Positions 8,387-49,622 of a stretch of 64,000 nucleotides of DNA are shown piece by piece; positions within the stretch are counted from its first letter, which is position 1; each line of letters begins with the position of its first letter. The notes under the pieces were generated by a model. It worked only from the letters and a program-made list of their open reading frames with translations, made no database searches and was not told the DNA's origin. The stretch is from an uncultured Granulosicoccaceae bacterium. Its GTDB lineage: Bacteria > Pseudomonadota > Gammaproteobacteria > CALCKW01. The position numbers were made by a program, and so were the translations under genes. The stretch is from assembly GCA_937965695.1 (NCBI GenBank), contig CALCKW010000007.1, positions 7,106 to 71,105 on the forward strand, in the 5' to 3' direction.

Positions 8387-8944
8387 TCAGTAATCGAGAG
8401 TTTCGATGTTGAGATTTTTATTGGTGTAAATGCAGATATCCGCTGCGATATTCAAACTTGCCTCAGCGATCTCTTGAGCACTCATCTCCGTGTGATCAAA
8501 CAGACCGCGAGCAGCAGCTTGCGCAAACGGACCGCCAGAACCAATGGCTATCAATCCATGCTCTGGCTCTATCACATCTCCATTGCCTGAAATAATCAGC
8601 GATGCGGTATGATCGGCAACGGCCAAAAGCGCTTCTAACTTGCGTAGCACTCGGTCGGTACGCCAGTCCTTTGCCATCTCGACCGCGGCACGAGTGAGTT
8701 GACCTCCGTGCGCCTCCAGTTTCGCTTCAAATCGTTCAAACAGCGTGAATGCGTCGGCAGTGCCGCCTGCAAAACCGGCCAAAACTTTGCCTTTATACAG
8801 ACGCCTGACCTTACAGGCGTTACCTTTCATGACGGTATTCCCCAAGGTCACCTGACCGTCGGCGCCGATAACCACTTGATTACCGCGGCGAACGCCGACA
8901 ACCGTGGTTCCTCTAAATTGTTCCACGCGTGTTTCTCCGTGCAT
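8387..8944 (-). CDS. hslV: ATP-dependent protease subunit HslV
   Basis: [31 protein letters not shown]...[14 protein letters not shown] matches HslV. The catalytic Thr-Thr is preceded by an in-frame 12-codon extension (alternatively a GTG 6 codons upstream), so the start is uncertain. Confidence 0.9.
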
Positions 8945-9205
8945 TGTTCACATTTTGACTCTGCCACTCGATGTACCATATGGCTGCAGAGACTTGAGAT
9001 CTACTTGACTAAATATGCCCTAAACCACGATTGTAGCCGGACAGTTAAAAATTAGTTGAATTCGCCTTGGCCCAATCACCAGAAAACAGTAAATCGTATC
9101 TATGACCTTGATTAATAACAGCTTATGGCGATTTGGTACGCCGCATGGCTTGCGACAGAGGCTAACAATGCCCTGTGTGCAGTCAGCTGTAGAAGGTAAC
9201 TGGGT

Positions 9206-10783
9206 ATGAACCTTGCCAAAAGCAAGTATTGGTTGCGTCTGGCAGCCTGGTTTAAGAAGGACAAGGCAATCGTCACCACCGCTGAGAGACACGACACTGC
9301 GCTGATCATACCGCGCAGACGACCTGCACCCAAGAAAGCCCTGCCCGCCACGGCTGCGGCTTGGTCTAAATGGATTCACGGCCTAGAACGCCTGCCCACG
9401 GGTGAGCGTGCGCGTTCGCTAAGTCAGCAGATCAAATTGTTCAACCGCTCCGAGTGCAAACCCGACGCACGATTGGCTGTGGCGAACAAGCTGCAAAGTT
9501 TCTGGCAAGAACGCCTCGGCGATCTCCTGCCAGTGTTTACTGCACAAGACTCTCCGATGACCGCAAATGCGGCACGCGCTTATCACGAATCTCTGAGCAT
9601 GCTGACGGAGCAAAGCTATTGCTTCATGGCCGCATTAGACGACGATGCCAGCCACAATCTATTGACCGATGTACAACGCACCTGGGCTTGCCTAGGCGGT
9701 ATTCGAGCGTTGCGCCAGAAAATAGAAATCTTATTAGACCGCTATCACACTATCCCTGTTGGTTTACTCGGCGATCTTTACAGCCTTTATCGGCTAGCAC
9801 GAAGAGGTGGTTACAACAATTTGCAGCTCAAAAACCACCCCGAGACTGTTGAACATGCCTTCAAACATGCTTTGATGCTGACAGTGGTTGACGCTTGGGG
9901 ATTGCGTCAGGGAGAACTTCGACGCTACAGTGAAAAATTACAACTCTGGTGCAAGGATGTCAGTTTACGCGACCGAGCCAACAAAAGCGGTACCGGCTGC
10001 TACGCCGTAGACCTAAACAGCGACAGCTTACCCGCCGCCTATGAGTTTAGCGACGTTGACCCAAACATTTTTTGGTTAGACACCAGCGAGTTACTCTCTC
10101 AATTGCAAATGAGTTGCGACAGTGCCGTGCGATCTGATGCCGATTCAGAAGCACCTCGCAGCCTTAGCACCGCGACACTAAATCACCTGCACCGCACCTG
10201 GCTGTCTCGACCAGTACGTATGAGCGCACGCGCGCACCGTGCAGATGCGGCTGCGCTTGAGATTGGTTTGAAAGACATTCACAGCCGAATGGAGCACGGT
10301 GTTCGATTTGGATTGCCGCCTAATCCAGAGTGGCAACTCAACAATCAAAGTACCGAAGGCCTAGGACTGATAAAAACTCGCGACACGGCACTACCGCTTC
10401 ATGTAGGAGAACTCGTCGCGGTCAGCGGCCTTAGCCGTGATGGAGGCAACTCAGTTCTACGCATTGGCACCACGCAGTGGTTGCGCTATGACATCGCCGG
10501 AGATCTGCGTTGCGGCATACACCTGATTGCTAATAATGCTCGACCCGTTATCGTCAGCCACAGCGTAGACGGTAGCGAGAACGCCCGCGTCAGCCATGAG
10601 TGCTTGTATGTCTCACCCGAACCCGGAATGGCTTACGCCACATTGATTGCCCCACCGCGTGATTTTGCGGCGGGACAAGTTATCGCTCTGCACCATAACG
10701 GACGAGCGGGAAAAAAATGGCGCCTGACCAGCCAGACACGCCACACAAATTCAGTCGCGTGTTATCGCATGGAACCCATTTAA
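9206..10783 (+). CDS. Hypothetical protein (525 aa)
   Basis: Long ORF with an ATG start and coding-like composition. No confident family. The C-terminal ~120 aa is beta-rich and possibly PilZ-like (weak). Convergent with the T4CP-like gene. Confidence 0.4.
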   Translation: MNLAKSKYWLRLAAWFKKDKAIVTTAERHDTALIIPRRRPAPKKALPATAAAWSKWIHGLERLPTGERARSLSQQIKLFNRSECKPDARLAVANKLQSFWQERLGDLLPVFTAQDSPMTANAARAYHESLSMLTEQSYCFMAALDDDASHNLLTDVQRTWACLGGIRALRQKIEILLDRYHTIPVGLLGDLYSLYRLARRGGYNNLQLKNHPETVEHAFKHALMLTVVDAWGLRQGELRRYSEKLQLWCKDVSLRDRANKSGTGCYAVDLNSDSLPAAYEFSDVDPNIFWLDTSELLSQLQMSCDSAVRSDADSEAPRSLSTATLNHLHRTWLSRPVRMSARAHRADAAALEIGLKDIHSRMEHGVRFGLPPNPEWQLNNQSTEGLGLIKTRDTALPLHVGELVAVSGLSRDGGNSVLRIGTTQWLRYDIAGDLRCGIHLIANNARPVIVSHSVDGSENARVSHECLYVSPEPGMAYATLIAPPRDFAAGQVIALHHNGRAGKKWRLTSQTRHTNSVACYRMEPI

Positions 10784-10789
10784 AGCCGG

Positions 10790-12310
10790 TTACCCACGAC
10801 GTCTGCGTTTCGCATCAAACAACACGATGTTGGCAGCAGGCGGAATCTTGAGCGATTGCGGTTCAAACAAATTAAGCTGGGTGTTTACACGCTTTAAATG
10901 CAGCCGGTTGTCGTCGAAGTGGTTTCTAAACATCGCATCGTTGAGATAGTCCACTTTCTTAAGAATTACCGTGCGCTTGCTACCCTCGTATAAAACCGCC
11001 AACTGGTCGCGCTCCAGCTCCAGTAGCATTTCGCCGTCGACATCCCCAAGTAAAGCTGCATAGTCATTGGCCACCCGCATGTTGCCAGGACCAAAGAGCT
11101 GCAAAGTTGCACAATTATTAAGCAACATTTCCCAGTCCTCGGCGTAGTTTTTTCGCAGTTGACTAAGGTCTTGCCAAAGTGTCCAAACCCGGACACCCAG
11201 CCCGCGCAGCATCGACATCGCCATCGGTAAAGTCTCCACACGGCCAATCGTTCCAGCTTCATCGATCAAGAACAGTGTTCGTTCGTCTGGTGCATGCCTA
11301 CGGGTAGCCAGCGCCATTGTCAGCGCACTGATCCAAAGCCGTAAAAGATTTTTGTGGGAGTGTAACTTGTGGCCAGGGACCACAAAATAAATCGTGAGAG
11401 ACTCGCCGTCGATAATGTGTTGCAACGGAAAACTCGAGAGATCCGTCGCCGCTCTTACAGATTCTGAGCCAAACAGCTGAACGTGATGTTGAGCAGACGA
11501 CTGCACTGATGGCCGAGTTGTGCCCTGCGCATGCTGAAGAAAAGCACTGAACTCCTGCTTAGCTAGCTTGCTTTTAACTTCACCACTGTCCAACAGCTGG
11601 ATTAAGAGCTCGCTAAAATCACTGTCATTGAACATATCCCTAAGTTGACTTATACAACACTTCTCTCTGTCACCACAGGTGGCCAGATGCGCGATCATAC
11701 CGGACAAGATCCCTTTGGCGGTTTCACTCCAAAATGCTTCCTTGTGACAAGATTCGTGACCAACAATCTCGTCAGCTAAACTCATCGCCGCATCGTCTAT
11801 CTCAACATCAGGCAAGAAGAGAATATCCATAGGATTAAACCCCGCAGTTACCTGCCCGCAAACCTTCCAAGGGTCGATACAAATCACTCGATGCCCCATC
11901 TCTTGGCGACGGCGCGATGTAATATGATGTAGTTCGCCTTTGGCATCCATCACAATCATCGGGCCGGTGAACTCTAACAATGCAGGCACAGCGGCACCTC
12001 GAGTTTTACCGGATCCAGTAGGTGCGATGGTTATTAAATGCCCTTCACCGCCCACTTCAAGCAATTCAGGTCTTTGAGGCGATTTTTTTTGGAGATCTTG
12101 GGTGAAGCCTAAGCCACCCCCCGTTTGAGGGATAGTCCAGCCGAGGGGGAGTTCGTCAACAACAAAGGGATATTCATTTTCTTGCACAGTCGTATTCCTT
12201 ATCGGGTGAGTGAGGATACTTAGTGAATGATGCTGGAGGTGTGAGCAATCGCTGGAGCGCCACCTTTGACGATAAACAGCAAAAGCAAACATCTCTAACT
12301 CAGCAATCAC
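10790..12310 (-). CDS. Soluble TraG/VirD4-like type IV coupling protein (T4CP) family ATPase lacking the N-terminal TM domain
   Basis: Walker A HLITIAPTGSGKTRGAAVPALLEFTGPMIVMDAKGEL...RVICIDPW is the TraG/VirD4 signature. Walker B is LFLIDEAGTIGRV. No hydrophobic N-terminus. The start may be GTG 12310 or the RBS-preceded GTG at 12187. Confidence 0.7.
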   Translation of the reverse strand: MIAELEMFAFAVYRQRWRSSDCSHLQHHSLSILTHPIRNTTVQENEYPFVVDELPLGWTIPQTGGGLGFTQDLQKKSPQRPELLEVGGEGHLITIAPTGSGKTRGAAVPALLEFTGPMIVMDAKGELHHITSRRRQEMGHRVICIDPWKVCGQVTAGFNPMDILFLPDVEIDDAAMSLADEIVGHESCHKEAFWSETAKGILSGMIAHLATCGDREKCCISQLRDMFNDSDFSELLIQLLDSGEVKSKLAKQEFSAFLQHAQGTTRPSVQSSAQHHVQLFGSESVRAATDLSSFPLQHIIDGESLTIYFVVPGHKLHSHKNLLRLWISALTMALATRRHAPDERTLFLIDEAGTIGRVETLPMAMSMLRGLGVRVWTLWQDLSQLRKNYAEDWEMLLNNCATLQLFGPGNMRVANDYAALLGDVDGEMLLELERDQLAVLYEGSKRTVILKKVDYLNDAMFRNHFDDNRLHLKRVNTQLNLFEPQSLKIPPAANIVLFDAKRRRRG

Positions 12311-12908
12311 CTACTGCCTTGTGGGCAGGGATCACATCATCACCCTATAAATAATTTAGGCAAGCATTTTTTACCCTTTAAATACAGGTGCGCCCCCGTG
12401 CTTTATCACTTGGTAAGATAAATACATCAAGTATGTTGACTTATAACACTAGATTTAATTACATCTATGGCCCTTTGCGATGATAGAAATTCTGTACAAT
12501 TCAAATCTTTGCTGAACTCTTATGAGAGTTAATGGAGAAAAAGACTATTCTGATAATCTAAGAAATCACAAACATTACATTTTTGTTATATTTGACATTA
12601 GGACACCGCGAGCTTTCTCTTGTAGAAACCCGGAGGCTTTTATATCCAGCTACACGACCTGAGACTCAGATCAAAAAGCCAGAGCTGCAATATAGAAACA
12701 ATGAATTTTCGAAGAATGGATAAAAAGTACTGATGGGACAGTCGCAGCGCTTTCACGACATGTAGTATTACACGGCCTCAGAGAAAATTTACAACAAGAG
12801 AACCAAGCGATCTAAGGAAGTTTTTATGCCCAATGCGCTTGTCGTATTGAAGCATTGCAAGGTCAAAGCAAGAAAGAAAAATCCGGCCTCATTCAAGAGA
12901 TGGGAGTT

Positions 12909-13688
12909 TTATGTCAGCTGTTGTCGATGTTGTTTTACCCAGCTACGCACTTGCCCCAGCAGGTTTTCAGCAGCATAACGTCCAGCAATACCTTCAGCCA
13001 GTTGATGAGTCACCCCTTGACGGCGAAACACCAAGGAATAATATTCGTGGCCTTTCTCATCGTAGCCCAGTGTCTCTGAAGTGCGCTTAGTGAATATGCG
13101 TTCCGCTTCTGGCAATTCGACACTTTGCTGATACAGCGGTTTATCAAAAAAACTGCGTCTGACTCGGACCTCGTCATCAGCCATATAAACCTCTAAACGA
13201 AGACCCCAAGACCAGAAACCCAACCAGAGAAAAATAAGACCCGCGGCGCTAGATAGCCCACCGAAAAGCCAAAACAACGACCCTGCAACAACAGCATAGT
13301 TGAAGAAATAGACCCCACTTCCTAACAACATCAACCCCATAAAGAGCATGCACAACGATGAAGATAGAAGCCAGCCAGACCGGCTAACCAATTGGAGCGA
13401 ATGGCGGTCGCTGTCCAATGAGATTCGTTCAACTGCAACAGACTCTGTCCTAGCTGACGATTGGACCTCGCATGCTGCACTACACCGCTCTGATGTGGCG
13501 GTTGGATGACTCTTGAAAGCAGATTCAAAATGACGCCAGAGTTGCCGGATCACTCTATTTGAATCACCGATAACGGTGTTAACTGACAAACCGGCAGCTA
13601 AGCCCGCCACAATTTTAGATTTTGACTTCAGCCCATATTGAAGCTTTGTCGCCCAGTTTCCAGTCATGCAAATGCTCTCGTGATCCAA
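12909..13688 (-). CDS. Membrane protein with 2 TM helices plus a C-terminal cytoplasmic domain, paralogous to the C-terminus of the 15037..16806 product
   Basis: Residues ~90-259 (ISLDSDRHSLQLVSRSG...WSWGLRLEVYMADDEVRVRRSFFDKPLYQ...EYYSLV...IAEGIAGRYAAENLL) align with the 589-aa protein C-terminus (ISLISDSDALQLISRSG...WSWGRKLEVVMQADELWLVRSLFGKALYQ...EYFALV...IAESIEGRHAAEALL). Confidence 0.5.
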   Translation of the reverse strand: MDHESICMTGNWATKLQYGLKSKSKIVAGLAAGLSVNTVIGDSNRVIRQLWRHFESAFKSHPTATSERCSAACEVQSSARTESVAVERISLDSDRHSLQLVSRSGWLLSSSLCMLFMGLMLLGSGVYFFNYAVVAGSLFWLFGGLSSAAGLIFLWLGFWSWGLRLEVYMADDEVRVRRSFFDKPLYQQSVELPEAERIFTKRTSETLGYDEKGHEYYSLVFRRQGVTHQLAEGIAGRYAAENLLGQVRSWVKQHRQQLT

Positions 13689-13753
13689 ATCATTCTTGGA
13701 AACACTATCAGCTCAAAACATGCCACTAGTTTCATAGTTCAGCGAAAATTCTA

Positions 13754-14389
13754 TCAATCCAGCAAGCTACTCCAATCTAGTGGGCTATTGAACCAATACT
13801 CAGGCGAGTTGGCTTGTAACTCAGACCGAGAGCCATGACCCCAAAGCACTGCACCTGCAGCGATACCATTTTTGTGCGCTGCTTGTAAATCGACACCGCG
13901 ATCACCAATCATTAAGGCATTCCTGTCGATCCCACCCGCGGTGAGCAACGCTTCAATTTGCATCCACTTACGTACTCCAATACCTCCACCACTGACAAAT
14001 TCAAAGAAGTGCTGGAGATCAAACAGCTGTAGAACCATTCTCGCTGTGCGTTCAGGCTTTGAGGTGCACACCGCCAGTCGCTGACCATGCTGCTTAAGCA
14101 GCTCCAAGCTTTCTCTGATTTCCGGGTAGAGCGTATTTTCCTTGAAACCCACGTCTAAATAGCGTTCGCGGTACTTGGCAACCATCGACGCAATTAACGC
14201 CGTATCACTGCTCCCTATCAAGTCACCAAGGCTCTCTTCTAGGGGTGGCCCAATGTAGACAGACAGATCCGCTTCATTCCGTGGATTAAACCCATAGAAT
14301 TCAAGCGCAAAGTTGAATGAACGGGCAATTCCCACTAAGGGATCACTCAGCGTTCCATCTAAGTCAAAGAGCAGGGTATTGAAGGCCAC
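13754..14389 (-). CDS. HAD-IA family hydrolase (phosphoglycolate phosphatase-like)
   Basis: Motif I is FDLDGTL. Also carries the Ser/Thr motif II, K...GDRGVD motif III and a cap domain. Confidence 0.7.
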   Translation of the reverse strand: MAFNTLLFDLDGTLSDPLVGIARSFNFALEFYGFNPRNEADLSVYIGPPLEESLGDLIGSSDTALIASMVAKYRERYLDVGFKENTLYPEIRESLELLKQHGQRLAVCTSKPERTARMVLQLFDLQHFFEFVSGGGIGVRKWMQIEALLTAGGIDRNALMIGDRGVDLQAAHKNGIAAGAVLWGHGSRSELQANSPEYWFNSPLDWSSLLD

Positions 14390-14419
14390 TATAGAATTTG
14401 GCCCGTGAGGATTGTCTGA

Positions 14420-14857
14420 CTATTCATCCGGTTGCCGAGAACCAGCTATAGCAATAACTCCCGTGTCAGGCCACTCGCCATAACTGTTCATTTGGCGCGT
14501 GGGTTCGTCCCAACTTGCACGGTGATCCATGAAAATATGCGCAGAAGGTGATTGCTCAAAATCTGAATCTAACGAACCTAGCCGGACTCGAACAAAAGGT
14601 GGATCATCACCCACCTTGGTAAACAGGGGGCTGCCACAACTTTTACAAAAGTGCCGTCGTTTTCCGGGCGATGATTCGTAAATACCAATATTGTCTTCAC
14701 CGTGTTGAATCTGCAACTCACTTGTCGGCACAGAAATGTTGGCGCCAAAAGCACTGCCCGAGGCTTTTCGACAACTGCGGCAGTGGCAGTAGACAAAATC
14801 ACCGACAGAGCGCGGGAAACTAAACTGAACCGCTTTACACAAACAAGAAGCTTCCAT
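14420..14857 (-). CDS. GFA/CENP-V family zinc-binding protein (glutathione-dependent formaldehyde-activating enzyme-like)
   Basis: CLC...CHCRSCRK...CKSCGSPLF cysteine pattern is typical of the GFA fold. Confidence 0.65.
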   Translation of the reverse strand: MEASCLCKAVQFSFPRSVGDFVYCHCRSCRKASGSAFGANISVPTSELQIQHGEDNIGIYESSPGKRRHFCKSCGSPLFTKVGDDPPFVRVRLGSLDSDFEQSPSAHIFMDHRASWDEPTRQMNSYGEWPDTGVIAIAGSRQPDE

Positions 14858-15036
14858 CGCATTGACTCACTCGTGGAGAAACCAGAGCACCAGCTTGCCA
14901 TAGACGGACTAGCCATGAAACACAATGGCGACATAGAGTGCCTAGACAACAGACTGGGCGGATCTGCCGTTTCTCCGAATTGTGCGAGCGCCCTTAAGCT
15001 TAACCGCACCTTGCCACACCACTTCGTTGTGGAGGA

Positions 15037-16806
15037 TCACACGGTGTCCGCTTCACGGTCAGGTTCGCGTGAATGCTGAGACCGTATCCATGCTTGGATT
15101 TCTGCTAAAAGCGCTTCAGCTGCATGGCGGCCTTCTATGCTTTCAGCAATTTTTTGCTTTTTGCCGTTGGCGTGTGAAACCAAGGCGAAGTATTCTACGG
15201 TCTTCTGACCTGAAGCGGTTGAAGTCATGATGCTTTTGGCTTGTATGTCATCGGCACCAGGCAAGGGCAAAGTACGCTGGTACAACGCTTTGCCAAACAA
15301 ACTGCGAACAAGCCACAACTCGTCTGCCTGCATAACAACTTCAAGTTTCCGGCCCCATGACCAAATACCACCCCAAACGATCAACGATCCAATTAAACTA
15401 AAAACAATACCGATAAACCAACTTCCGGAGTCGCCAACCCAGGCAAAGTACACTAGAGCAAATCCGATCGAAGCAAAGATTCCGCCTATACCGCTGAACA
15501 CAAGCGCATTGGATGTGTTACGACCAGATCGACTGATTAGCTGCAGTGCATCAGAATCGCTGATTAGTGAGATCTGCTCGTTGGCGCTGGATTTAGCATC
15601 TGCTTGTTTTCGTTCTTTTGCTTGTGCTCTAAAAGTGGCTGAACCAATATCCGCTGTTTTAGCGACACCTTGAATCACCGGCACTTCCCAAGTGCGTTTG
15701 AAAGGCTGGCTATCGCCGTTGACAGAGAACTCTCCTTCGGCACGCAGCAACCACTGTATTTTGGTGCGACCTTCAACATCTGTCGCAGGCAGTTCATTGG
15801 GCACATCAAAACAAAAAGTGTGCTTACTTCCAGCCGCGCCTCTCTCCGCAAATGCTTGTTGATGATCCTGCCAGATTAAGCTGCGATGCGAAGACTTACG
15901 ACCACGGGTGATTTTTACACACTCGAGGTGCACCATAAGCACTTGGTTTGAGCTGTCAGCCGAAACGTCAAAAGAACCACCAACCTGCCCGCCAGCACAA
16001 CCGGGCAAAGGGTCCGCCTTTAGCAGAGCAGGGCCAAAAAGCCGTAGATTTTTTACTGTTTTAAATCCGTGGTATAAAAAGCCTAAGCCGATTAAAGGAA
16101 CCATCAAAACAAACAAAATCGCATGTTTACCTTTTGCAACTTCAGCTGGCATCAGCATAAGTAAAGGCACAGAAACCAGCAAAATAAACGCTGCGATAAA
16201 GAAAAAAACCTTGCCGATAAAACCTTCTTGAGGCTTTATACCCTCAGCAAATTGCTCCAACGGCTGCGGATGAATTGTTTTACGTGTAGAAAGCCACATC
16301 ACACCGCAACCAGCGCCACCAAAGATCAGCAAGAACACGACGCCGATGATCGCTTTAAACCAACGAAAGCTTCGGTCTAGCAGAGCTTCTTGGGGATCAC
16401 TCGGATTTACCCATGCTTGCAATTCAGATCGACTCGATTTATTGCGAACTTGTGATTCCAACTGGCGCCAGTAGTCTTCATCACTGTCAAAACTGTCGTC
16501 AAGAGTAATTTGGGAACCCACGTACTGAGCACCCCGAAACTGATAACTGTAAGAGGCTCTGAGGCTATAGACCCGAGTTGTTTTACCATCACTGCGATGC
16601 AGCTCACTGTCGCGCTGGATCGACATCAAAGAGGTCGGCACCGCTTGCCATGATGCACTGCCAAAATAACCGACGACTTGAGGTCCAGAGATAAACACGC
16701 AGGCCAGCAAGCCCGCCAAAACGAAGATAGCGCCGAAAATAACACCACCATTTAACCAAGAACGTTTAGCTTTCGAGCTCTGCTGATCCATTACACCGCG
16801 CCTCAT
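15037..16806 (-). CDS. Multi-domain membrane protein: N-terminal DUF3592 domain, central TM/beta-rich region, and a C-terminal 2-TM + cytoplasmic module shared with the 12909..13688 product
   Basis: The N-terminus has TM-beta-domain-TM with AWVNPSDPQEALL, which is DUF3592-like. The C-terminal ~180 aa is paralogous to the neighbouring 259-aa protein. Confidence 0.6.
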   Translation of the reverse strand: MRRGVMDQQSSKAKRSWLNGGVIFGAIFVLAGLLACVFISGPQVVGYFGSASWQAVPTSLMSIQRDSELHRSDGKTTRVYSLRASYSYQFRGAQYVGSQITLDDSFDSDEDYWRQLESQVRNKSSRSELQAWVNPSDPQEALLDRSFRWFKAIIGVVFLLIFGGAGCGVMWLSTRKTIHPQPLEQFAEGIKPQEGFIGKVFFFIAAFILLVSVPLLMLMPAEVAKGKHAILFVLMVPLIGLGFLYHGFKTVKNLRLFGPALLKADPLPGCAGGQVGGSFDVSADSSNQVLMVHLECVKITRGRKSSHRSLIWQDHQQAFAERGAAGSKHTFCFDVPNELPATDVEGRTKIQWLLRAEGEFSVNGDSQPFKRTWEVPVIQGVAKTADIGSATFRAQAKERKQADAKSSANEQISLISDSDALQLISRSGRNTSNALVFSGIGGIFASIGFALVYFAWVGDSGSWFIGIVFSLIGSLIVWGGIWSWGRKLEVVMQADELWLVRSLFGKALYQRTLPLPGADDIQAKSIMTSTASGQKTVEYFALVSHANGKKQKIAESIEGRHAAEALLAEIQAWIRSQHSREPDREADTV

Positions 16807-16911
16807 GACGATAAGTCTGATGCGCAGTTAATAGCGGTATTCGTGCCTATCGAACCCACGCTGTCCGTTAAAAGCTGTCATGTTGGTCACCTCATGCAAC
16901 CAGTAAATCTT

Positions 16912-17005
16912 CTAGGGAGCTTCAGATTTAGTTCGGTCAGTGACTTTGGTGTGAAAAATTTGGACCCAGCAAGGCGCTAACATGACTTGATCTGAGGTTC
17001 CCTAG
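16912..17005. mobile_element. MITE-like intergenic repeat, copy B (94 bp) with 9-bp TIRs
   Basis: CTAGGGAGC ... GTTCCCTAG, 8 of 9 bases complementary. The internal sequence is homologous to copy A at 5723-5891 without the ~70-bp insert. Confidence 0.5.
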
Positions 17006-17046
17006 TATCTCCACCAAAAAGCTACTGCGTTATCTAAGGCCGCGTT

Positions 17047-18465
17047 TCAACCCCTCTCTGAGTGCCTCTGCAGCAAAGTCCACAGGGCTTCTAGGTGTTC
17101 TCGTTCGGTGGCTTCCACCCCAACAGATACCCGCACCATCCAGTTACCGCCCAACATACTCGGTGACATAAAGGCTTCGCCACTGTCGTTGATTTCACCC
17201 ACCCAGCGCAGCGTGTGCCTATCCAGCGCCTCACCCGATAGCTTTCCGCCAGGGTTATGCCGAATGGCCAGAGTTTGCAGTGTCAACGGGGTAAGCATTT
17301 CCCAATCTGGATGTGCTGCCACTTGATCGGCAAGCCAACGGGCATTTTGCAAATCGCGTCGCAATCTCTTGCGCAGCGCGTCAGGACCATCCAGCGCAAG
17401 ATGAAACCAGAGCTTCAAGGCACGAAAGCGACGACCCAAAGGAATGCCCCAATCACGATACTGAGTGACTTCTCCGTCAGTACTGCCACGTAAGTAGCTT
17501 GGATTTGTGGACAACACTTGCTGCAAATGATCGGTGTCACGGACGTAAAAAAGAGAGCAGTCGAGTATAGTGCCCAGCCATTTGTGCGGGTTCCAAGCCA
17601 TCGAATCAGCACGCTCAACGCCTTGCCACAGGTGTCGGCACTCGGGCAATAACATGGCGCTGCCCGCCATGGCCGCATCAACATGCAACCAGATATTTTG
17701 CTCTGCACAAACATCGGCAATCTCATCAATAGAATCAAATGCCGTGACTGCAGTAGAGCCTGAGCAGGCGACGACGCAAGCAGGGGTCATGCCTGCTGTA
17801 GTGTCTTCACGTATGCAACGAGCCAAAGCTGAGACGTCCATCGCATGGGTTTGCGGATCAACGTCCACCATCACCAAGTTTGAATCACCTATGCCCGCCA
17901 TTTGCACGGCCTTAGCGACAGACGAATGTGCCTGTGCTGTGGTGTATACCCGCAAGGGCGATTTGAGTGCCTGCAATCCCCCTGCGTTTTTGCACAGTTT
18001 GCTGGCGCGCTCGCGCGCGAGCAATATACCCACCAGACAAGCCGAAGAAGCCGTGTCGTGAATGGTGCCCTGCCATTGCTCCGACAGTCCAGTAAGCTCG
18101 CGCATCCAGTCGCAGGTGACTTCTTCTACTTCCGTTAGCGCCGGGCAACTCTCCCAGCTGATGCCAAGTGTGCCCATACCGGCGCAGGCGATGTCTCCCA
18201 ATACCGAAGCGGGACTTGCATTTGAAGGGAACCAGCCATAGTGCATAGGGTGCTGTACTTGTGTCACACCCGGCACCACCACGGTATCGAGCGCTTGCAG
18301 CAGACTTTGCATAGATTGCGGCTGGTCGGGCAACGGTGGCATATTCTTGCTGACCTCACCCGGGCCAACTTGCGCAAGCACCGGTCGCTCTGGAACGGAT
18401 AGGCGGTAGTCTGCAATCCAGTCTATAAGCTGGTGGCCTGCTTCGCGAAAGCTCTCGTTGTCCAC
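17047..18465 (-). CDS. Pyridoxal-phosphate-dependent aromatic-L-amino-acid (tyrosine/tryptophan-type) decarboxylase, group II
   Basis: 472 aa. HYGWFPSNASPASVLGDI..., the SSACLVG region and the Lys-containing PLP region are typical of DDC/TDC family decarboxylases. Confidence 0.85.
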   Translation of the reverse strand: MDNESFREAGHQLIDWIADYRLSVPERPVLAQVGPGEVSKNMPPLPDQPQSMQSLLQALDTVVVPGVTQVQHPMHYGWFPSNASPASVLGDIACAGMGTLGISWESCPALTEVEEVTCDWMRELTGLSEQWQGTIHDTASSACLVGILLARERASKLCKNAGGLQALKSPLRVYTTAQAHSSVAKAVQMAGIGDSNLVMVDVDPQTHAMDVSALARCIREDTTAGMTPACVVACSGSTAVTAFDSIDEIADVCAEQNIWLHVDAAMAGSAMLLPECRHLWQGVERADSMAWNPHKWLGTILDCSLFYVRDTDHLQQVLSTNPSYLRGSTDGEVTQYRDWGIPLGRRFRALKLWFHLALDGPDALRKRLRRDLQNARWLADQVAAHPDWEMLTPLTLQTLAIRHNPGGKLSGEALDRHTLRWVGEINDSGEAFMSPSMLGGNWMVRVSVGVEATEREHLEALWTLLQRHSERG

Positions 18466-18603
18466 GCAAGTCTCCTCAATAAGGTGGTTCCCCTACAATT
18501 TAACACGTTAAGGACTTTTGGAAAACCTGCCAAATACTTCCGTATACGAGGCCGCAAACGCTCGCAGCTCAAGCAACATCTGCAAAGTTGGCTAGCTCGA
18601 GGT

Positions 18604-19845
18604 CTAAAACTTACTCAGATTAAACGGTGCAGCATCAGTCAGCATCAGAGAATCGAGTTGCCGCACTGCGTCAACAGGGCCAGTGATTTCGCCCAGTTGG
18701 TGTAATCGGACGACACGCGTATTACCCAAGACAAAAGCAGCTAATTGCTCTGGACCAAATTGCAGCACCTGCTGACTATCTGTCTCAAGGCGTTCGACAG
18801 AGATTCCAGACGTTGTCACCACCAGCTGGAAACGCCCAGAAAATTCAGGCAGCATCGGATCGTGGTAGTCAAAGCTAATGTCACCCGTCCCGTTGTATTG
18901 TCGTTGACGCAATAGTCGTGGCATGTCCAAAACCCGCAACCACAGCATATCCGTGCGACTGACTTGCACGAGTTGGCGCGGGTCTGTCATGAAGTTTCTT
19001 ATGATTGGATCGATCGGTGCCAGCTGCCAGCGTAGTTCGCGCACCCATGCGATCTTGCACAAGTACTGAAACATCGCTTGCTCCGCAGTTGCATTAAGAG
19101 CAACAAGCTCCCGCAACACGAGCTGGCAGCGCTGCAAACCATCGACCACACCGCTGCTGTGAGACTGCTGAATAACCACATACAATGCATAGGCATCCGC
19201 TATGCCATCTACATCGTAGTGAACCGCAACAAACTGTGGGCCACCGCCGAGCCAGCTGCGTTTACCCGAACAAATGATTTGCTGCCACCACCCTGCACTG
19301 CGCTGTATTTCCCCGGCCAGACTTTGTGCCTGATGTATCTGCGCGCAAACAGCCCTGCCTTCTTCTTCACCACTGATTAGCCGTACTTTGCCTCGCTGCT
19401 GCAAGGGAGCTCTCAATGAAAAATTTGCCGTCTCTAAACGGTACTCTGCCATCTCGGTAGAAACGCCGTAGCCAAACCGCCCGTACAAACCTGACTCTGA
19501 GGCCATCAGACCTGAAACCACGTCTCCCTGTTCTAAGCAATTGTGTAAGTGAGCTTCGATCAATAAGCGCAAGCCACCCGCGCCTTGCTCACTGGCGACA
19601 ATGCCAACACCCGCCAGTCCAGCTGCTGGCACAAAGCTCCCTCCAGGCAACGCCAGAGGAAACTGATAAGCCAGACAACCGCCAACGATGTCGCCCTCTC
19701 TTGCCAATGCAATACGATGTGCTTGAGGTCTTAGGTAATCTCGCGCCTGATCGTCGTCCTCGCAGACGCCAAAGGCGAACATAATGGCGTCACGGGTAGC
19801 GGGCCATTGAGACTCATCGGGTTGAAACACTCGCAACTGTGGCAT
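18604..19845 (-). CDS. Eis-like GNAT N-acetyltransferase with C-terminal SCP2-like domain
   Basis: ~413 aa from the ATG at 19845 (MPQLRVFQPDESQWPATRDAIMFAFGV). Tandem GNAT folds and a C-terminal sterol-carrier-like tail resemble Eis family acetyltransferases. 138 bp upstream of the decarboxylase on the same strand. Confidence 0.6.
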   Translation of the reverse strand: MPQLRVFQPDESQWPATRDAIMFAFGVCEDDDQARDYLRPQAHRIALAREGDIVGGCLAYQFPLALPGGSFVPAAGLAGVGIVASEQGAGGLRLLIEAHLHNCLEQGDVVSGLMASESGLYGRFGYGVSTEMAEYRLETANFSLRAPLQQRGKVRLISGEEEGRAVCAQIHQAQSLAGEIQRSAGWWQQIICSGKRSWLGGGPQFVAVHYDVDGIADAYALYVVIQQSHSSGVVDGLQRCQLVLRELVALNATAEQAMFQYLCKIAWVRELRWQLAPIDPIIRNFMTDPRQLVQVSRTDMLWLRVLDMPRLLRQRQYNGTGDISFDYHDPMLPEFSGRFQLVVTTSGISVERLETDSQQVLQFGPEQLAAFVLGNTRVVRLHQLGEITGPVDAVRQLDSLMLTDAAPFNLSKF

Positions 19846-19870
19846 GGGGTGACATATCCTTGTACACATT

Positions 19871-19901
19871 GATCTAGGAAGCTTCAGATTAAAACTAGAT
19901 C
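19871..19901. repeat. Solo fragment related to the MITE 5' end (palindromic GATCTAGGAAGCTTCAGATT...CTAGATC)
   Basis: CTAGGAAGCTTCAGATT matches the first 17 nt of copy B (CTAGGGAGCTTCAGATT). Lies in the divergent GNAT/polB promoter region. Confidence 0.3.
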
Positions 19902-19971
19902 AACACAGCGTGCAACGTTTTCGTTTGAATCAACCAAATGGAACGGCGATGACTTTTTAACTGAACATCAA

Positions 19972-22275
19972 GTGACTATGCTCAAACAAGGCTATCTCCT
20001 GCAACGTCAATGGCGCGATACAGACAAAGGGCTGGAATATACCCTCTGGCTAGCCAGCGACGAAGGTCCTCTAAAGCTGGTGTTCGAGAAACAACAGGCG
20101 ATTTGTTTCGTGCCGCGCGACGCAGAGTTTCCTGCCGCAAACTTCCAGCGCAGATCCAGCCAGCTGCGGTCACAGGAAGGTGAACCCGTCGATTCTCTCT
20201 ACTTTGATCGACAACGAGATCTAGAGCAGTGGCTGGATCAAGGTTCACACCGATACCTCGCGTTTGAAGCTGACATTAAACCTGTAGAACGCTTTTTGAT
20301 GGAGCGTTTCGTTCGGGGTGGTATGGAAGTCAGTGGTGATTGGTTTGCCGAAAAAGGTGTGATGACTTGCCGCAACCCGCAGATCAGATCCGTGGATTGG
20401 CAACCCAACTTGAAAGTGATGTCCTTAGACATAGAGACAGGCGGTAGCGAAGGAGAAGCACTCTATAGTGTCGGGCTGAGCGCACAAGATTTTGGCAAAG
20501 TATTCATGGCTCGTCGCGCTCCCGACGACGGCTCAGACCATTCCAGCATTGTCTGGTGCGGCAATGAGCGAGCAACTTTGAAAGCTGCACTGGCCTGTAT
20601 TGCAGAGCACGATCCAGACGTTTTGATCGGCTGGAACATTGTCGGTTTTGACCTGAGCTTCATGGCATCGGTTAGCAAGCGCTGCGGTTTGCGATTTAGT
20701 CTTGGTCGCGCAGGCGAGAACGCACAAGTGCTACCACCTGGCCAAGGAGGCACCCACATCGCGCGTGTACCTGGACGTGTGGTGCTGGACGGCGTAGCAC
20801 TGCTTAAAGCGGCTTTCTATCAGTTTGAATCCTTTGCGCTAGACAATGTAGCCCATGAACTTCTAGGCGAGCGCAAACTCATCCAGGCACATGGCCTAGA
20901 CAAACTCAGAGAGATCAAACGCCAGTACCGCGAAGATCCCGTTGCACTCGCTGCTTACAATTTGCAGGACTGTGTATTGACGCATCGGGTCTTCGAACAC
21001 GCTGAGCTGGTCGCATTCGCCCTCGCGAGAACAGGGGCAACTGGGTTGCCATTGGACCGCGTGGGAGGGTCGGTAGCCGCGTTCGACTATTTGTATTTAC
21101 CACGCATGCACCGCAAGGGCACGGTTGCCCTGTCAATGATACAAGTCAATGAAGGCGAAAACAGCCCAGGCGGTTACGTGCTGGATTCCACCCCAGGTCG
21201 TTTTGCCAACGTGCTGCTGTTCGACTTTAAATCACTGTACCCTTCCATCATTCGGAGCTTTTTAATCGATCCCGCTGGCCTTTGCGCAGAACACCCCGAT
21301 GCAGTTCCAGGGTTTCGCGAAGCTTGGTTCAACCGCGAAACGCCCATTCTGCCCGCGCTAATAACCGAGCTTTGGGAAGCGCGAGACGCCGCGAAGTTAG
21401 ATAAAAATACACCGCTGTCGCAAGCAATAAAAATCATCATGAACAGCTTTTATGGTGTACTCGGCTCAAGTGGTTGTCGATTCCACGACCCGAGATTGGC
21501 GAGTAGCATTACACTCCGCGGTCACCAAATTATCTACGACAGCAAACAATGGTTTGAACAGCAAGGAGAGCGTGTTATTTACGGTGACACAGATTCCCTG
21601 TTTATCGCCATGAGCCCAAGCTTGAGCTTGGAAGAATGCCAATCAAAGGGTGAGATCTATCGCGATCAGCTAAACCACTATTGGCGAGAACGATTGCAGA
21701 CCGAGTTTAAACTGGAGAGCCATTTAGAAATAGAATTTGAAACACTCTTCAGCCAATTTTGGATGCCTTCTATCCGTGGCAGTGAGCTTGGCAGTAAGAA
21801 ACGCTATGCAGGGCAAGTTCAAAAACCCGACAAAACTGAGCTGATTATTAAAGGCTTGGAATCAGTAAGATCAGATTGGACACATTTAGCACAGCGTTTT
21901 CAACGAGAGCTATTGGAGCGTTGGTTTGCCGATCAAGATCTAACGGGTCTTTGCCGTGAAATACATTTGGGATTGATGCAAGGGGAATTTGACAAAGAGC
22001 TGGTTTTTAAAAAACGCATTCGACGTCCGCTGGACAGTTATCAAAAAAATGTTCCGCCGCATATCCAGGCCGCTCGAAAACATCCCAGACGCCCTAGCAG
22101 ACAAATCGAATATTTGTTTACGCTGAATGGCCCTGAACCTCTGGGACATTTAACGACTACTCTAGACTACGACCGATATGCTGAAAAACAGCTTGCTCCA
22201 ATTGCTGACGCCATTCTAATGTTTGAAGGATTAAACTACGCTGAGCTAGTGGGAAAACAAATGGATCTATTTTAG
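19972..22275 (+). CDS. polB: DNA polymerase II (family B)
   Basis: 767 aa. The N-terminus LLQRQWRDTDKGLEYTLWLASDEGPLKL parallels E. coli Pol II. Exonuclease motifs and the polymerase motif YGDTDS are present. Confidence 0.9.
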   Translation: MTMLKQGYLLQRQWRDTDKGLEYTLWLASDEGPLKLVFEKQQAICFVPRDAEFPAANFQRRSSQLRSQEGEPVDSLYFDRQRDLEQWLDQGSHRYLAFEADIKPVERFLMERFVRGGMEVSGDWFAEKGVMTCRNPQIRSVDWQPNLKVMSLDIETGGSEGEALYSVGLSAQDFGKVFMARRAPDDGSDHSSIVWCGNERATLKAALACIAEHDPDVLIGWNIVGFDLSFMASVSKRCGLRFSLGRAGENAQVLPPGQGGTHIARVPGRVVLDGVALLKAAFYQFESFALDNVAHELLGERKLIQAHGLDKLREIKRQYREDPVALAAYNLQDCVLTHRVFEHAELVAFALARTGATGLPLDRVGGSVAAFDYLYLPRMHRKGTVALSMIQVNEGENSPGGYVLDSTPGRFANVLLFDFKSLYPSIIRSFLIDPAGLCAEHPDAVPGFREAWFNRETPILPALITELWEARDAAKLDKNTPLSQAIKIIMNSFYGVLGSSGCRFHDPRLASSITLRGHQIIYDSKQWFEQQGERVIYGDTDSLFIAMSPSLSLEECQSKGEIYRDQLNHYWRERLQTEFKLESHLEIEFETLFSQFWMPSIRGSELGSKKRYAGQVQKPDKTELIIKGLESVRSDWTHLAQRFQRELLERWFADQDLTGLCREIHLGLMQGEFDKELVFKKRIRRPLDSYQKNVPPHIQAARKHPRRPSRQIEYLFTLNGPEPLGHLTTTLDYDRYAEKQLAPIADAILMFEGLNYAELVGKQMDLF

Positions 22276-42948: not shown

Positions 42949-45372
<2,424 letters not shown>

Positions 45373-45524
45373 TTAAGGCAGGCAATCGATTATTATAGCA
45401 TCAAACAGTGCGCACGATGCGGTTTAGCTTCATCTGGAGAGCTGTTGTTCAACAGTAAATCGTGGGGTTTCTCGGACATCTTCGACAACGCGTTACTGAA
45501 GTTTATAGAGCCAATTTAATCACG

Positions 45525-45540
45525 TGTTTCACGTGAAACA
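45525..45540. promoter_or_regulatory. parS: parS site 1 (TGTTTCACGTGAAACA, perfect 16-bp palindrome)
   Basis: Exact match to the ParB-binding consensus tGTTtCAcGTGAAAcA. Lies in the gyrB-recF intergenic region. Confidence 0.75.
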
Positions 45541-45627
45541 TTTCTTAGAAATTATTGCCTTTCTGACAAACCAAACATTACCCACACCATGTTAGTTTGA
45601 GTACAAAACAGATTTATGAAGAGTGTT

Positions 45628-46704
45628 TTAAACAGCGGAGATTTCGCCTTGTTTCACGTGAAACATCACTTTAGTGCACTCAAAATCTGGATCTAGCGTA
45701 TTTGTTCCAGTTACGAACAACTGGTGGCCTTGCGCCAATAACAATTGCGTCAATCTGCGGGTTCTTGTGTCATCCAACTCTGATTGCAGATCATCACACA
45801 ACATCAACATATGACTTTTACGACGGCGATGAAAGTCAGTCACCTGTGCCAAAGTCAACGCGTAGAGAACCAATTTTTGCTGTCCTCTCGACAGGACCTC
45901 TCTAGCAGGCTTGCCGTCTGCAAGGAGCTGGAGATCAGCTCTATGCGGTCCAACAGATGTCGTTTTGAATCGCCTGCATTGTTCGTGACGGGTGCTTAGT
46001 GTTTGCCCAAATGACTCGCCTCTACCCCATCCTTGTTGATGGCCGATACTCAACGAAATGTTGCTATCGAGAGATTCGAGTATTTCAGGTAATAAAGCGT
46101 CAATACGTTCACAGTAGTTATCGCGAGCCAATGAGATCGCGTCGCCTAGTGTTCCAAAGAGACTGTCAATTGCCTTGATTTGCTTAGTGTCCCAAGTTGT
46201 CTTAAGCAAACTATTACGCTGGGCTAACAGTCTGTTGTATTCACGCCATGGAAAAGAGACACCCTGTTCCACGTGAAACACGCCCCAATCCATATACCTT
46301 CGACGAAGTCCGGGGCTGCCGCTGACTAGTGCATGTGAATCTGGCGTCACAGACCGCAGTGGAACCAAAGTAGCTAAATCCGAGATGCGCTTTACATCAG
46401 CTTGATTGTGACGAATTTGAGTAGAGCCATCTCTAGACTTTTCGATGCCTAATGTTTGTGAAGGTTCTTTAGCGTTTAGACGAAGTGTCGCGCGAACTCG
46501 TAGTTCTGATTTATCGTATTGGATAAGGTTGCGTTGCTGCGTGCTACGAAAACTCTGCCCTGTGGCCAAAAGATGAATTGCTTCGAGGACAGAAGTCTTG
46601 CCAGAACCATTTTCTCCCGATAAATAAACAAAAGAGGCATCACTTTGCAGTGATACCTCTTTGAGAATTCGTACATTTTGAATACACAGCGATTCTAATC
46701 TCAA
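45628..46704 (-). CDS. recF: DNA replication and repair protein RecF
   Basis: Walker A GENGSGKTS plus an SMC-like signature. Conserved position between dnaN and gyrB. Confidence 0.9.
   Translation of the reverse strand: MRLESLCIQNVRILKEVSLQSDASFVYLSGENGSGKTSVLEAIHLLATGQSFRSTQQRNLIQYDKSELRVRATLRLNAKEPSQTLGIEKSRDGSTQIRHNQADVKRISDLATLVPLRSVTPDSHALVSGSPGLRRRYMDWGVFHVEQGVSFPWREYNRLLAQRNSLLKTTWDTKQIKAIDSLFGTLGDAISLARDNYCERIDALLPEILESLDSNISLSIGHQQGWGRGESFGQTLSTRHEQCRRFKTTSVGPHRADLQLLADGKPAREVLSRGQQKLVLYALTLAQVTDFHRRRKSHMLMLCDDLQSELDDTRTRRLTQLLLAQGHQLFVTGTNTLDPDFECTKVMFHVKQGEISAV
45650..45665. promoter_or_regulatory. parS: parS site 2 (TGTTTCACGTGAAACA), inside the recF 3' end
   Basis: Perfect 16-bp palindrome identical to site 1. 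Confidence 0.75.
46265..46280. promoter_or_regulatory. parS: parS site 3 (TGTTCCACGTGAAACA, one mismatch), inside recF
   Basis: 15 of 16 match to the palindrome. The half-site TGTTCC is the Pseudomonas-type variant. Confidence 0.55.
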
Positions 46705-46710
46705 GCTTTC

Positions 46711-47808
46711 CTACAACCTCATCGGCATGATGACATATTTATGATTTTCGGTTCCTGCTGCAGTGACGAGACAGCTACTGTTCCCATCACTGAGCTTCAA
46801 TGATACTTCGTCACCTTCAATAGCGCCCAAAACATCAATGACGTATCCCACGTTGAAACCGATTTCTATATTTGGTCCAGTGTATTCGATAGCCAACTCT
46901 TCTTCAGCTTCTTCTTGTTCTGGGTTATTTGTTTGAATTTTAACCTGACCAGCTTGAAACTCTAATCGAACGCCTTTGTATTTTTCATTCGCCAAAATAG
47001 CGACCCTAGACAAAGCCTGCCTAAGCGTGCCTTTGTCCACCAACGCGACATGGCCTTCTCCACTCGGTATAACGCGATTGTAGTCTGGGAAACGACCATC
47101 TATTAATTTTGAAGTAAACCGTAAGCTTCCCATTTGGAATTGAATGTGATTATCGGTCATCGCTACTTCGACATCAGGTGTTCCAACGTCCAACAACCTG
47201 ATTAATTCACTGACACCTTTGCGAGGAATAATGGCCTGTCTATTTTCAACGCCTGCCTCAGTTTTTGCTTCCGAAAACGATAAGCGATGCCCGTCTGTGG
47301 TTATTGCCTTAACCGAATCGGCGCTGATTTCAAGTAATAGGCCGTTTAAGTAATAACGAACATCTTGTTGAGCCATTGAAAAAGCTGTTTTTGCTAAAGC
47401 ACCAGACAAAGCACTACAACCCAGCTGAAATTTAACAGCAGACTGCAGTTCTTCAGTTTTGGGAAACTGGTTTGCAGGGAGCGTGGCTAAGTTAAACCGA
47501 CTTCGTCCCGAACGAACTAATGCTTTTCCGTCACTGACTTCAATGTTTATATCAGATCCTTCAGCCAGGGTTTTGCAAATATCAAACAATTTGCGTGCTG
47601 GCAGAGCTGCTTCGCCTTCTACATCGATACTGGCAGCAATACTGTCGTTTAACTCGATCTCAGTGTCTGTTGCCGTCAGGTTTAAAATGCTGTTCTCAGC
47701 GTTAATTAGCACATTGCCCAATATAGCCAGAGTGTTGCGTCGTTCTACTGCGCCAATTACGCGCTGTAGCGGTTGAAGTAGCTCTTCACGCGATAGGCTG
47801 AACTTCAT
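46711..47808 (-). CDS. dnaN: DNA polymerase III beta sliding clamp
   Basis: MKFSLSREELLQPLQRVIGAVERR...VIMPMRL is the canonical DnaN. Confidence 0.95.
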   Translation of the reverse strand: MKFSLSREELLQPLQRVIGAVERRNTLAILGNVLINAENSILNLTATDTEIELNDSIAASIDVEGEAALPARKLFDICKTLAEGSDINIEVSDGKALVRSGRSRFNLATLPANQFPKTEELQSAVKFQLGCSALSGALAKTAFSMAQQDVRYYLNGLLLEISADSVKAITTDGHRLSFSEAKTEAGVENRQAIIPRKGVSELIRLLDVGTPDVEVAMTDNHIQFQMGSLRFTSKLIDGRFPDYNRVIPSGEGHVALVDKGTLRQALSRVAILANEKYKGVRLEFQAGQVKIQTNNPEQEEAEEELAIEYTGPNIEIGFNVGYVIDVLGAIEGDEVSLKLSDGNSSCLVTAAGTENHKYVIMPMRL

Positions 47809-48053
47809 ACTATATATATCCTTTATATTTTAAAGATTTTTTATTACTACTATTACTAGTCCTGTGCATAAGTGTACAAGTCAAATAAAAGCAATACTAT
47901 CAAAGACCTATAAAGCCTTTGTCGGTGTACAAATGCTCTACTAAGTGAGCAGTTATACTGTTGATCATATGTGTATAACTTTGTGCACTCACTTATGCGC
48001 AGACTTCTACAGTCGTTATCCACAGGATTTAAAAGTCGCTTTTTAGCAACTCA
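47809..48053. other. AT-rich dnaA-dnaN intergenic region with a DnaA box (TTATCCACA at 48016-48024)
   Basis: About 30% GC over 245 bp with a perfect DnaA box. Probably a dnaN promoter/auxiliary DnaA-binding region, possibly a DUE. Confidence 0.45.
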
Positions 48054-49502: not shown

Positions 49503-49622
49503 GTCTATCGATTGATGCAGCACCACAGAACCGTCTACTGGAAACCACAATAAAATGGCAGGAGATTCTGAGGCTACGCAAGATAACGTTCGCAGGTGAC
49601 GCGGAAGGCTCGCAGAAATCAC

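Follow-up and report, generated by a model that had tools for sequence, protein, structure and literature searches.

Layout of the locus

The window analysed here, a stretch of 64,000 nucleotides from contig CALCKW010000007.1 of an uncultured Granulosicoccaceae bacterium, contained five co-directional open reading frames (ORFs) on the minus strand at 10790-16806, one of which encodes an ATPase related to the type IV coupling proteins (T4CPs) of the VirD4/TraG/TrwB family. An initial annotation of the window had read these five genes as a candidate for a single undescribed system headed by the ATPase. ORF calling and Pfam searches confirmed the five ORFs and their domain calls (T4CP-like, DUF3592, GFA, and HAD), whereas the ATPase gene proved to be the last of the array and not the first. 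The features of the locus were as follows.

9206..10783, plus strand: FimW_N-family gene, 525 aa (orthologues annotated PF27104; ORF cluster c29)
10790..12187, minus strand: T4CP-like ATPase gene (VirD4/TraG/TrwB family) without transmembrane (TM) segment, 465 aa (PF02534, alignment, AlphaFold2 model)
12188..12908, minus strand: AT-rich intergenic region of 721 bp upstream of the ATPase gene (GC 0.386, alignment with L001/L004)
12909..13688, minus strand: gene for a 259-aa two-TM protein, partial paralogue of the C-terminal module of the DUF3592 protein (BLASTP, hydropathy)
13754..14389, minus strand: HAD-family phosphatase gene, 211 aa (PF13419, E=7.6e-28)
14420..14857, minus strand: GFA-family zinc protein gene, 145 aa (PF04828, E=4.3e-28)
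15037..16806, minus strand: gene for a DUF3592 multi-pass membrane protein, 589-aa ORF (584 aa in the database model; PF12158, E=5.5e-07)
16912..17005, no strand: imperfect palindrome of 94 nt, resembling a repetitive extragenic palindrome (REP) or a miniature inverted-repeat transposable element (MITE), in the spacer between the DUF3592 and decarboxylase genes (repeat analysis)

The locus adjoined hslVU. Since the window spans the chromosomal origin region, with gyrB, recF, dnaN, dnaA (48054-49622), and then yidD/yidC, mnmE, and mnmG at 42949-59451, the ATPase gene lay about 36 kb from dnaA. Ten large ORFs that were scanned, together with locus look-ups, gave housekeeping genes only (dnaA, dnaN, recF, gyrB, yidC, mnmE, mnmG, ubiD, argH, a lysA-like gene, and a photolyase gene), and polB was also in the window. 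No tra, vir, or relaxase gene was found among the parts of the window examined (18 proteins against Pfam and three short-contig look-ups). The housekeeping backbone beside hslVU, as initially annotated, was thus borne out, and the accompanying statement that relaxase, VirB, and Tra genes were lacking throughout the 64 kb held for the parts scanned. The 64-kb window had no tRNA genes, and the GC content of the ATPase gene was in line with that of the surrounding genes.

A complete coupling-protein-like ATPase that lacks the membrane anchor

The ATPase had initially been taken as a 506-aa protein. An ORF of this length does exist, whereas the true start is the GTG at 12187, which gives 465 aa: this start was preceded by an AAGGA ribosome-binding site (RBS) and a leader of ~40 nt that were kept in two orthologous loci, and the database model of the protein (P0001) began at the same codon. 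The 506-aa ORF matched PF02534 (T4SS-DNA_transf, E=3.8e-47), PF12696 (TraG-D_C), and PF10412 (TrwB_AAD_bind, E=3.4e-17), and the maximum 19-residue Kyte-Doolittle hydropathy was 1.19, that is, no TM segment was present; the description of the protein as an anchor-less ATPase of the T4CP type was therefore upheld. In a family alignment of 28 sequences, the columns of Walker A (APTGSGKT), Walker B (LFLIDEAG), and the arginine region (RGxG) were invariant or near-invariant, as were those of the RG..W..WQDLSQL block, LRGLGVRVWTLWQDLSQL.

The AlphaFold2 model of the ATPase (predicted local distance difference test score, 87.6) contained helices at residues 119-259 that correspond to the all-alpha domain (AAD) of coupling proteins. 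The best structural matches found by Foldseek were Cagβ (8dol, E=5e-18), TrwB (1e9s, the TrwBΔN70 form, 1e-15), and DotL (6sz9, 9e-09), all with probability 1.00, and these matches indicated a T4CP fold that includes the all-alpha domain. HerA, VirB4, and DndH were more distant neighbours, with FtsK/HerA-superfamily ATPases at E of about 1e-8 to 1e-7. On seven NCBIfam models for VirD4/TraG the ATPase scored 92-131 bits against cut-offs of 250-728, and its TraD scores were lower still; the highest score, 130.9 bits, was obtained with the CD1115 model (from integrative and conjugative elements, or ICEs, of Firmicutes; cut-off 250), and the others were 30-110 against 443-728.

Four Granulosicoccaceae orthologues, including that of the window, were intact at 461-465 aa, the other three being 65-66% identical to the ATPase of the window. 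The proportion of non-synonymous differences (pN) among them was 0.14-0.24 and that of synonymous differences (pS) 0.77-0.83, a saturated value, so that pN/pS was 0.18-0.31. The low pN against saturated pS, with all four ORFs intact, pointed to purifying selection and not to decay. In PADLOC-DB 2.0 the ATPase matched mad8 only, and marginally (E=5.7e-05, 20.8 bits, at the level of the P-loop), and the other five locus proteins scanned had no match, in agreement with the earlier statement that no described system with this combination of genes was recognisable. Together, these results placed the ATPase within the T4CP superfamily as an intact protein that has no membrane anchor.

The ATPase gene keeps its place apart from the variable genes upstream

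To the window we compared three related Granulosicoccaceae loci, designated L001, L004, and L094. In all four the ATPase gene, a convergent FimW_N gene, and then hslV-hslU formed a fixed block. Between the pyridoxal phosphate (PLP)-dependent decarboxylase gene and the ATPase gene, the following genes were found in order, those on the opposite strand being marked with a minus sign.

Window: DUF3592, GFA, HAD, 259-aa paralogue
L001: DUF3592, MscL(-), YjeF(-)
L004: LtrA, ion channel, GFA, HAD, YjeF(-)
L094: LtrA, ion channel, GFA, HAD, DUF3592, MscL(-), YjeF(-)

L004 thus had no DUF3592 gene, L094 had the GFA-HAD pair ahead of DUF3592, and in L001 and L094 the opposite-strand MscL and YjeF genes stood between the DUF3592 and ATPase genes. 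No remnants of YjeF, MscL, LtrA, or the ion channel were detected in the window by tblastn. Because content and order upstream differed at each locus, the stretch from the decarboxylase to the ATPase gene is best described as a hotspot of gene turnover made up of independent small units. Neither membrane protein was encoded beside the ATPase in any of 80 other family loci, so the proposed co-occurrence of the ATPase gene with the membrane-protein genes failed outside this one bacterial family. The further suggestion that the two membrane proteins are split-off anchors or partners of the ATPase found no support either, given that L004 lacks DUF3592, that the 259-aa gene is specific to this genome, and that the 80 other loci gave none. 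The view of the five neighbouring genes as one system was not supported; the ATPase gene stands apart from the other four and holds a stable position. For the window as a whole, the outcome was that a false five-gene system was removed and attention narrowed to one gene.

The region upstream of the ATPase gene set it apart further. The AT-rich block noted in the initial annotation exists (GC 0.39 at 12250-12749, versus about 0.50 elsewhere), but since the true start of the ATPase is at 12187, this block does not mark an edge of the cluster: it falls within the array, in the 721-bp spacer that separates the ATPase gene from the 259-aa gene. Blocks of the spacer were common to its equivalents in L001 and L004, namely a TAAGTCAA..TTGAT motif and a CCTGC-N6-GCAGG stem-loop, and the ~40-nt leader at about 12188-12225, which ends in the RBS and the GTG start, was likewise common to both. 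For comparison, the upstream spacer of ATPase genes in the family was usually 100-300 bp. No Rfam match was obtained at E<=1 over 8900-20000, the spacer included, and 12188-12908 wholly contained no ORF of at least 50 aa and no convincing small ORF. The spacer probably holds a promoter and regulatory region of the ATPase gene's own, and from the 721-bp spacer and the conserved leader the gene is predicted to be its own transcription unit. As judged from the sequence, this long, partly conserved AT-rich region suggests that expression of the ATPase is regulated rather than constitutive.

The ATPase belongs to a widespread clade without TM segments

A family scan of one genome per species found that at least 547 loci encode relatives of the ATPase, the closest being from Granulosicoccaceae, Planctomycetota (Gemmata, Zavarzinella), Caulobacterales/Hyphomonadaceae, and Bacteroidota (Spirosoma, Runella). 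Carriers of a clade member include Zavarzinella formosa DSM 19928, Spirosoma oryzae DSM 28354, Spirosoma sordidisoli TY50, and Granulosicoccus isolates. When 1.8 billion cluster representatives were searched with a profile, 5,429 matches fell below 1e-30. The best 150 of these, which are representatives of clusters at 50% identity, all had E<1e-119 and mostly 425-480 aa, and most of them started a few residues ahead of the nucleotide-binding domain (NBD). A hydrophobic segment N-terminal to Walker A was predicted in just one of 214 family-level proteins, whereas most of the lower-scoring T4CPs from the same search had two to five. In a neighbor-joining tree, all 68 of the clade proteins included (from P0001-P0070) fell into one TM-less clade, sister to the TM-bearing T4CPs; proteins of this clade have about 430-480 aa. 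On these grounds, the loss of the anchor is an old event that defines the clade and not a local truncation. A C-terminal DYLxD..NPxY motif was common to the ATPase and to TM-anchored TraG-like relatives such as P0075. Twenty longer family members were checked for domain fusions, and their extensions contained no Pfam domain. The literature searched held no description of a solitary chromosomal clade of TM-less T4CPs, an absence that is not proof of novelty, and T4CP-like ATPases were not mentioned in the surveys of conflict systems that were checked.

The genes around the ATPase gene were examined by calling and clustering ORFs over 83 family loci, with BLAST clustering at 1e-8 and 1e-3. No universal partner gene was found across the 83 loci; there were lineage-local pairs only, and ten candidate small partners had no meaningful Pfam match and were not consistently membrane proteins. 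At 33 Hyphomonadaceae/Caulobacterales loci the ATPase gene stood in conserved core synteny, with a POT transporter, gshA (glutamate-cysteine ligase), rsmE, an ABC transporter, ubiA, a TonB-dependent receptor, TldD, and SMC as neighbours. At about 40 other loci the neighbours were unrelated from locus to locus. Pfam censuses of these roughly 40 non-syntenic loci showed that Response_reg (6) and LysR (4) were the commonest families among 136 immediate neighbours and that TPR and sigma-70 headed the list among 111 farther neighbours; no T4SS (type IV secretion system), relaxase, or integrase family occurred in two or more members of either set. Two-component signalling proteins were considered as partners (five loci, 6 of the 136 neighbours being Response_reg) and set aside as too weak and too generic an association. 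DprA was also considered; it occurred twice among the farther neighbours, both times in related syntenic metagenome-assembled genomes and about 9 kb off, and was dismissed as coincidence.

Viral contigs and plasmids contributed little to the family. IMG/VR viral contigs gave two weak matches only, and among the best plasmid matches listed (72,556 records) about 4 were at family level, versus thousands of matches to canonical T4CPs. We concluded that genes of the clade are inherited vertically at fixed core positions in Granulosicoccaceae and Hyphomonadaceae, and are scattered and mostly solitary in Planctomycetota and Bacteroidota. A distant member of 429 aa, P0068, was encoded in a plasmid-like region (L090:1320-14479) with ArdC, KlcB, H-NS, DnaB, and luxI/luxR, so not every member of the clade is a chromosomal core gene.

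A sister subclade is associated with a partner domain and patatin

A sister subclade comprised P0034, P0044-47, P0050, P0057, and their relatives. On a metagenome contig (L088:6552-10594), the ATPase gene of this subclade had on its flanks overlapping genes that encode proteins of 216 and 246 aa and a patatin phospholipase, and the module was adjoined by a PIN gene and an integrase gene. On the Sinorhizobium meliloti plasmid pEm1132b (L095 5816-9422), a homologous 254-aa gene (E=4e-18) preceded the ATPase gene, and a patatin gene was beside it. In plasmid coordinates, the partner-domain and ATPase genes occupy 197342-199657 and the patatin gene 196051-197145. In P0034, the ATPase itself carried the partner domain of ~250 aa as a C-terminal fusion (E=3e-23). 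This domain had no Pfam match, and outside L088/L089 it was present neither in the window nor in any of the roughly 94 loci compared. The ATPase, the partner domain, and patatin together make a concrete candidate for an undescribed conflict system.

Two other settings were observed. On a transposase-rich metagenome contig (L003:4550-10783) and on the Runella plasmid pSP2_1 (L097, 4188-14152), a T4CP-like gene was flanked by small unrelated ORFs and by opposite-strand genes of the TPR-CHAT/caspase family. These settings and the module of the sister subclade suggested a role in conflict systems for parts of the family, which is not directly applicable to the gene of the window.

Neighbouring genes and repeats in the window

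As initially noted, the two membrane proteins of the array have a common C-terminal module (~250 aa, 35% identity, BLASTP E=3e-35), with about 6 hydrophobic segments in the 589-aa protein and about 2 in the 259-aa protein. The 259-aa protein had no Pfam, NCBIfam, or PADLOC match and was found in this genome only, being absent from L001, L004, and L094; its gene arose in this lineage as a partial copy of the C-terminal module of DUF3592 and now stands as a separate gene. The DUF3592 protein belongs to an independent family, with full-length homologues (P0244-P0269) that include those of Alcanivorax and Pseudomonadales. In Alcanivorax (L093) its gene sits between a rhomboid gene and leuA, and no T4CP-like gene was found within ±8 kb.

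The GFA gene lay 30 bp upstream of the HAD gene, and the pair was present in L004 and L094 but not in L001. The HAD protein scored below every NCBIfam equivalog cut-off. On the other side of the ATPase gene, the convergent FimW_N gene was separated from it by 6 bp between stop codons, and this tight convergence (from a 4-bp overlap to a 74-bp gap) was kept in all four Granulosicoccaceae loci. The FimW_N orthologues in L001, L002/L004, and L094 were annotated PF27104, and the protein of the window had no match in the local Pfam copy.

The palindrome at 16912-17005 corresponds to the MITE-like element noted before. Its 35-nt arms were 71% complementary (CTAGGGAGCTTCAGAT... / ...ATCTGAGGTTCCCTAG), and one arm was repeated at 19873-19890 in the GNAT/polB spacer (18-mer count of 2, versus 0.02 expected). 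It possibly represents a REP/MITE-like repeat family of this genome.

Interpretation and alternatives

We favor, with moderate confidence, the reading that the window encodes a cytoplasmic ATPase, a domesticated motor or sensor derived from the VirD4/TraG branch of T4CPs that has shed its N-terminal anchor together with all genetic linkage to a T4SS, and that its gene is a solitary, conserved gene beside a variable segment made up of small units unrelated to one another. What this reading says of structure and genomic context we consider highly probable. Its mechanistic part is by analogy and, on our own estimate, doubtful. TrwBΔN70 is a DNA-dependent ATPase. By analogy with this soluble protein, which forms oligomers on DNA, G-quadruplex DNA for example (PMC7434980), the ATPase would probably assemble as a ring on its substrate in the cytoplasm. 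It would probably use ATP to bind, hold, or translocate a nucleic-acid or unfolded-protein substrate, which the variable all-alpha domain may choose, and it would act alone or with unlinked partners instead of feeding a secretion channel.

Several points weigh against this reading. The mechanism for the subclade of the ATPase is drawn from analogy only. Canonical T4CPs are reported to require their transmembrane domain (TMD) for hexamer formation and function (PMC7434980), so a solitary TM-less ATPase needs another route to oligomerisation. The neighbor-joining tree has no bootstrap support. The censuses list only families seen two or more times, so that single T4SS genes may be present at individual loci, and the negative result for T4SS genes covers the examined parts of the 64-kb window and the sampled neighbourhoods. 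Finally, the partner/patatin and CHAT/caspase neighbours of other members hint at an ancestral role in conflict systems and not in housekeeping.

The view that the five genes make up a single undescribed system, with the DUF3592 and 259-aa proteins as split-off anchors or partners comparable to TraI beside TraJ of pIP501, can draw on the common strand of all five genes, on the paralogy of the two membrane proteins, on the precedent of a TM-less T4CP with a small adjacent membrane protein (PMC7434980), and on the presence of a DUF3592 gene less than 5 kb from the ATPase gene in L001 and L094. Every related locus nevertheless differs in upstream content and order, L004 does without DUF3592, YjeF and MscL stand in between on the opposite strand in L001 and L094, and the 259-aa gene is unique to this genome. 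The 721-bp spacer and the conserved leader also set the ATPase gene apart, the Alcanivorax DUF3592 gene has no T4CP-like gene within ±8 kb, and such a neighbour occurred at 0/80 other loci. The five-gene system is therefore largely refuted by synteny, and we consider it very improbable. Even less credit is due to a decaying remnant of an integrated conjugative element, which would account for a chromosomal T4CP homologue beside a variable region with a palindromic repeat nearby. It was contradicted by the four intact orthologues (461-465 aa), whose catalytic motifs are invariant and whose pN/pS is 0.18-0.31, by a GC content in line with that of the surroundings, by the lack of a tRNA gene in the window and of an integrase or tra gene in the examined parts of the window or related loci, and by the TM-less state common to the whole clade. 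The alternative of such a remnant, left open when the window was first annotated, thus gave way to intact orthologues under purifying selection, with no integrase or tra family recurring among the neighbours.

Two further alternatives were given more weight, and both remain unlikely in our judgement. The ATPase might be an orphan coupling protein acting in trans: an unlinked adaptor in the membrane would dock it onto a T4SS encoded at another place in the genome or on a resident plasmid, to which it would recruit DNA or effectors. Everything required of a T4CP except the anchor has been kept, the DYLxD..NPxY motif is common with TM-anchored TraG-like relatives (P0075), and it is known that T4CPs can serve heterologous T4SSs and that mobilisable elements may carry a T4CP without a T4SS (PMC7434980, PMC4027160). 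However, no relaxase, oriT-type gene, or effector family recurs beside the ATPase gene, and its position in core synteny is fixed across genera, which is unusual for conjugation genes. The family also occurs in Bacteroidota, whose T4SSs use a different type of T4CP. Moreover, mutants of canonical T4CPs that lack the TMD are non-functional in transfer (PMC7431656). With a similarly low probability, the ATPase might be a single-gene or dispersed immune or anti-plasmid component that senses relaxosomes, phage DNA, or conjugative DNA on entry and then sequesters it or activates an effector encoded elsewhere. Such a role would suit the operonic partner domain and patatin of the sister subclade, with its fusion in P0034, the TPR-CHAT/caspase genes beside other members, and the patchy distribution across phyla, and there is a parallel in the T4SS-DNA_transf domain at the N-terminus of three Menshen NsnA proteins, where it is a putative sensor module (PMC12065111). 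Against it, the subclade of the window has no adjacent effector, the partner domain is absent from the window and 90-odd loci, and PADLOC gave only the marginal mad8 match (20.8 bits). The gene furthermore occupies a fixed, origin-proximal core position and not a defence island, and defence genes are not typically conserved in synteny from genus to genus as this one is.

The favored reading of a solitary, T4CP-derived cytoplasmic ATPase can be extended to the clade as a whole. It is conceivable, and we propose it tentatively, that the clade represents a domesticated coupling protein: a T4CP that has left conjugation and now works in the cytoplasm as a ring ATPase, serving a cellular or immune role in its own right. 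On this view it has become a fixture of the core genome in several aquatic lineages and, in the sister subclade, is coupled to a partner domain and patatin. One possible role would be to sense or sequester incoming single-stranded DNA or relaxase-DNA complexes. A T4CP is taken as the signature of a conjugative or effector-translocating T4SS, and programs that scan genomes use T4CPs to call mobile elements. The existence of a large clade of intact, anchor-less T4CP homologues that are solitary in chromosomes implies that a lone T4CP match is a poor marker of mobility, and that the T4CP motor has been reused beyond feeding a secretion channel. Some members of the clade lie within about 40 kb of dnaA in fixed synteny, and the identity of the substrate could reveal a new cytoplasmic activity in DNA or protein handling or a new immune sensor.

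Comparison with known systems

The clade apparently consists of widespread, T4SS-independent, anchor-less homologues of coupling proteins that have so far been uncharacterised, and it differs from each of the known systems closest to it. Canonical VirD4/TraG/TrwB T4CPs (1E9R/1E9S, 8DOL, 6SZ9) agree with the ATPase of the window in the NBD, Walker A and B, the arginine-finger block, the inserted all-alpha domain, and the fold. Unlike them, the ATPase has no N-terminal TMD, has no T4SS, relaxase, or effector genes nearby, occupies a fixed position in the core chromosome, and scores far below all NCBIfam equivalog cut-offs. T4CPs without a TM segment are a recognised subfamily in the classification of Llosa and Alkorta, exemplified by TraJ of pIP501 with its membrane partner TraI (PMC7434980). 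TraJ has the same soluble architecture, with NBD and AAD only; in contrast to the ATPase of the window, which has neither a T4SS operon nor a conserved membrane neighbour, it is encoded within a T4SS operon beside its small membrane partner and acts in conjugation. Defence ATPases of the HerA-SIR2, HerA-DUF4297, DndH, and Menshen T4SS-DNA_transf-NsnA types always come with a fused or adjacent effector, whereas the gene of the window has none and belongs to no PADLOC system. What they have in common with the ATPase, as we read it, is that they are ring-forming P-loop motors of the same superfamily that work outside secretion.

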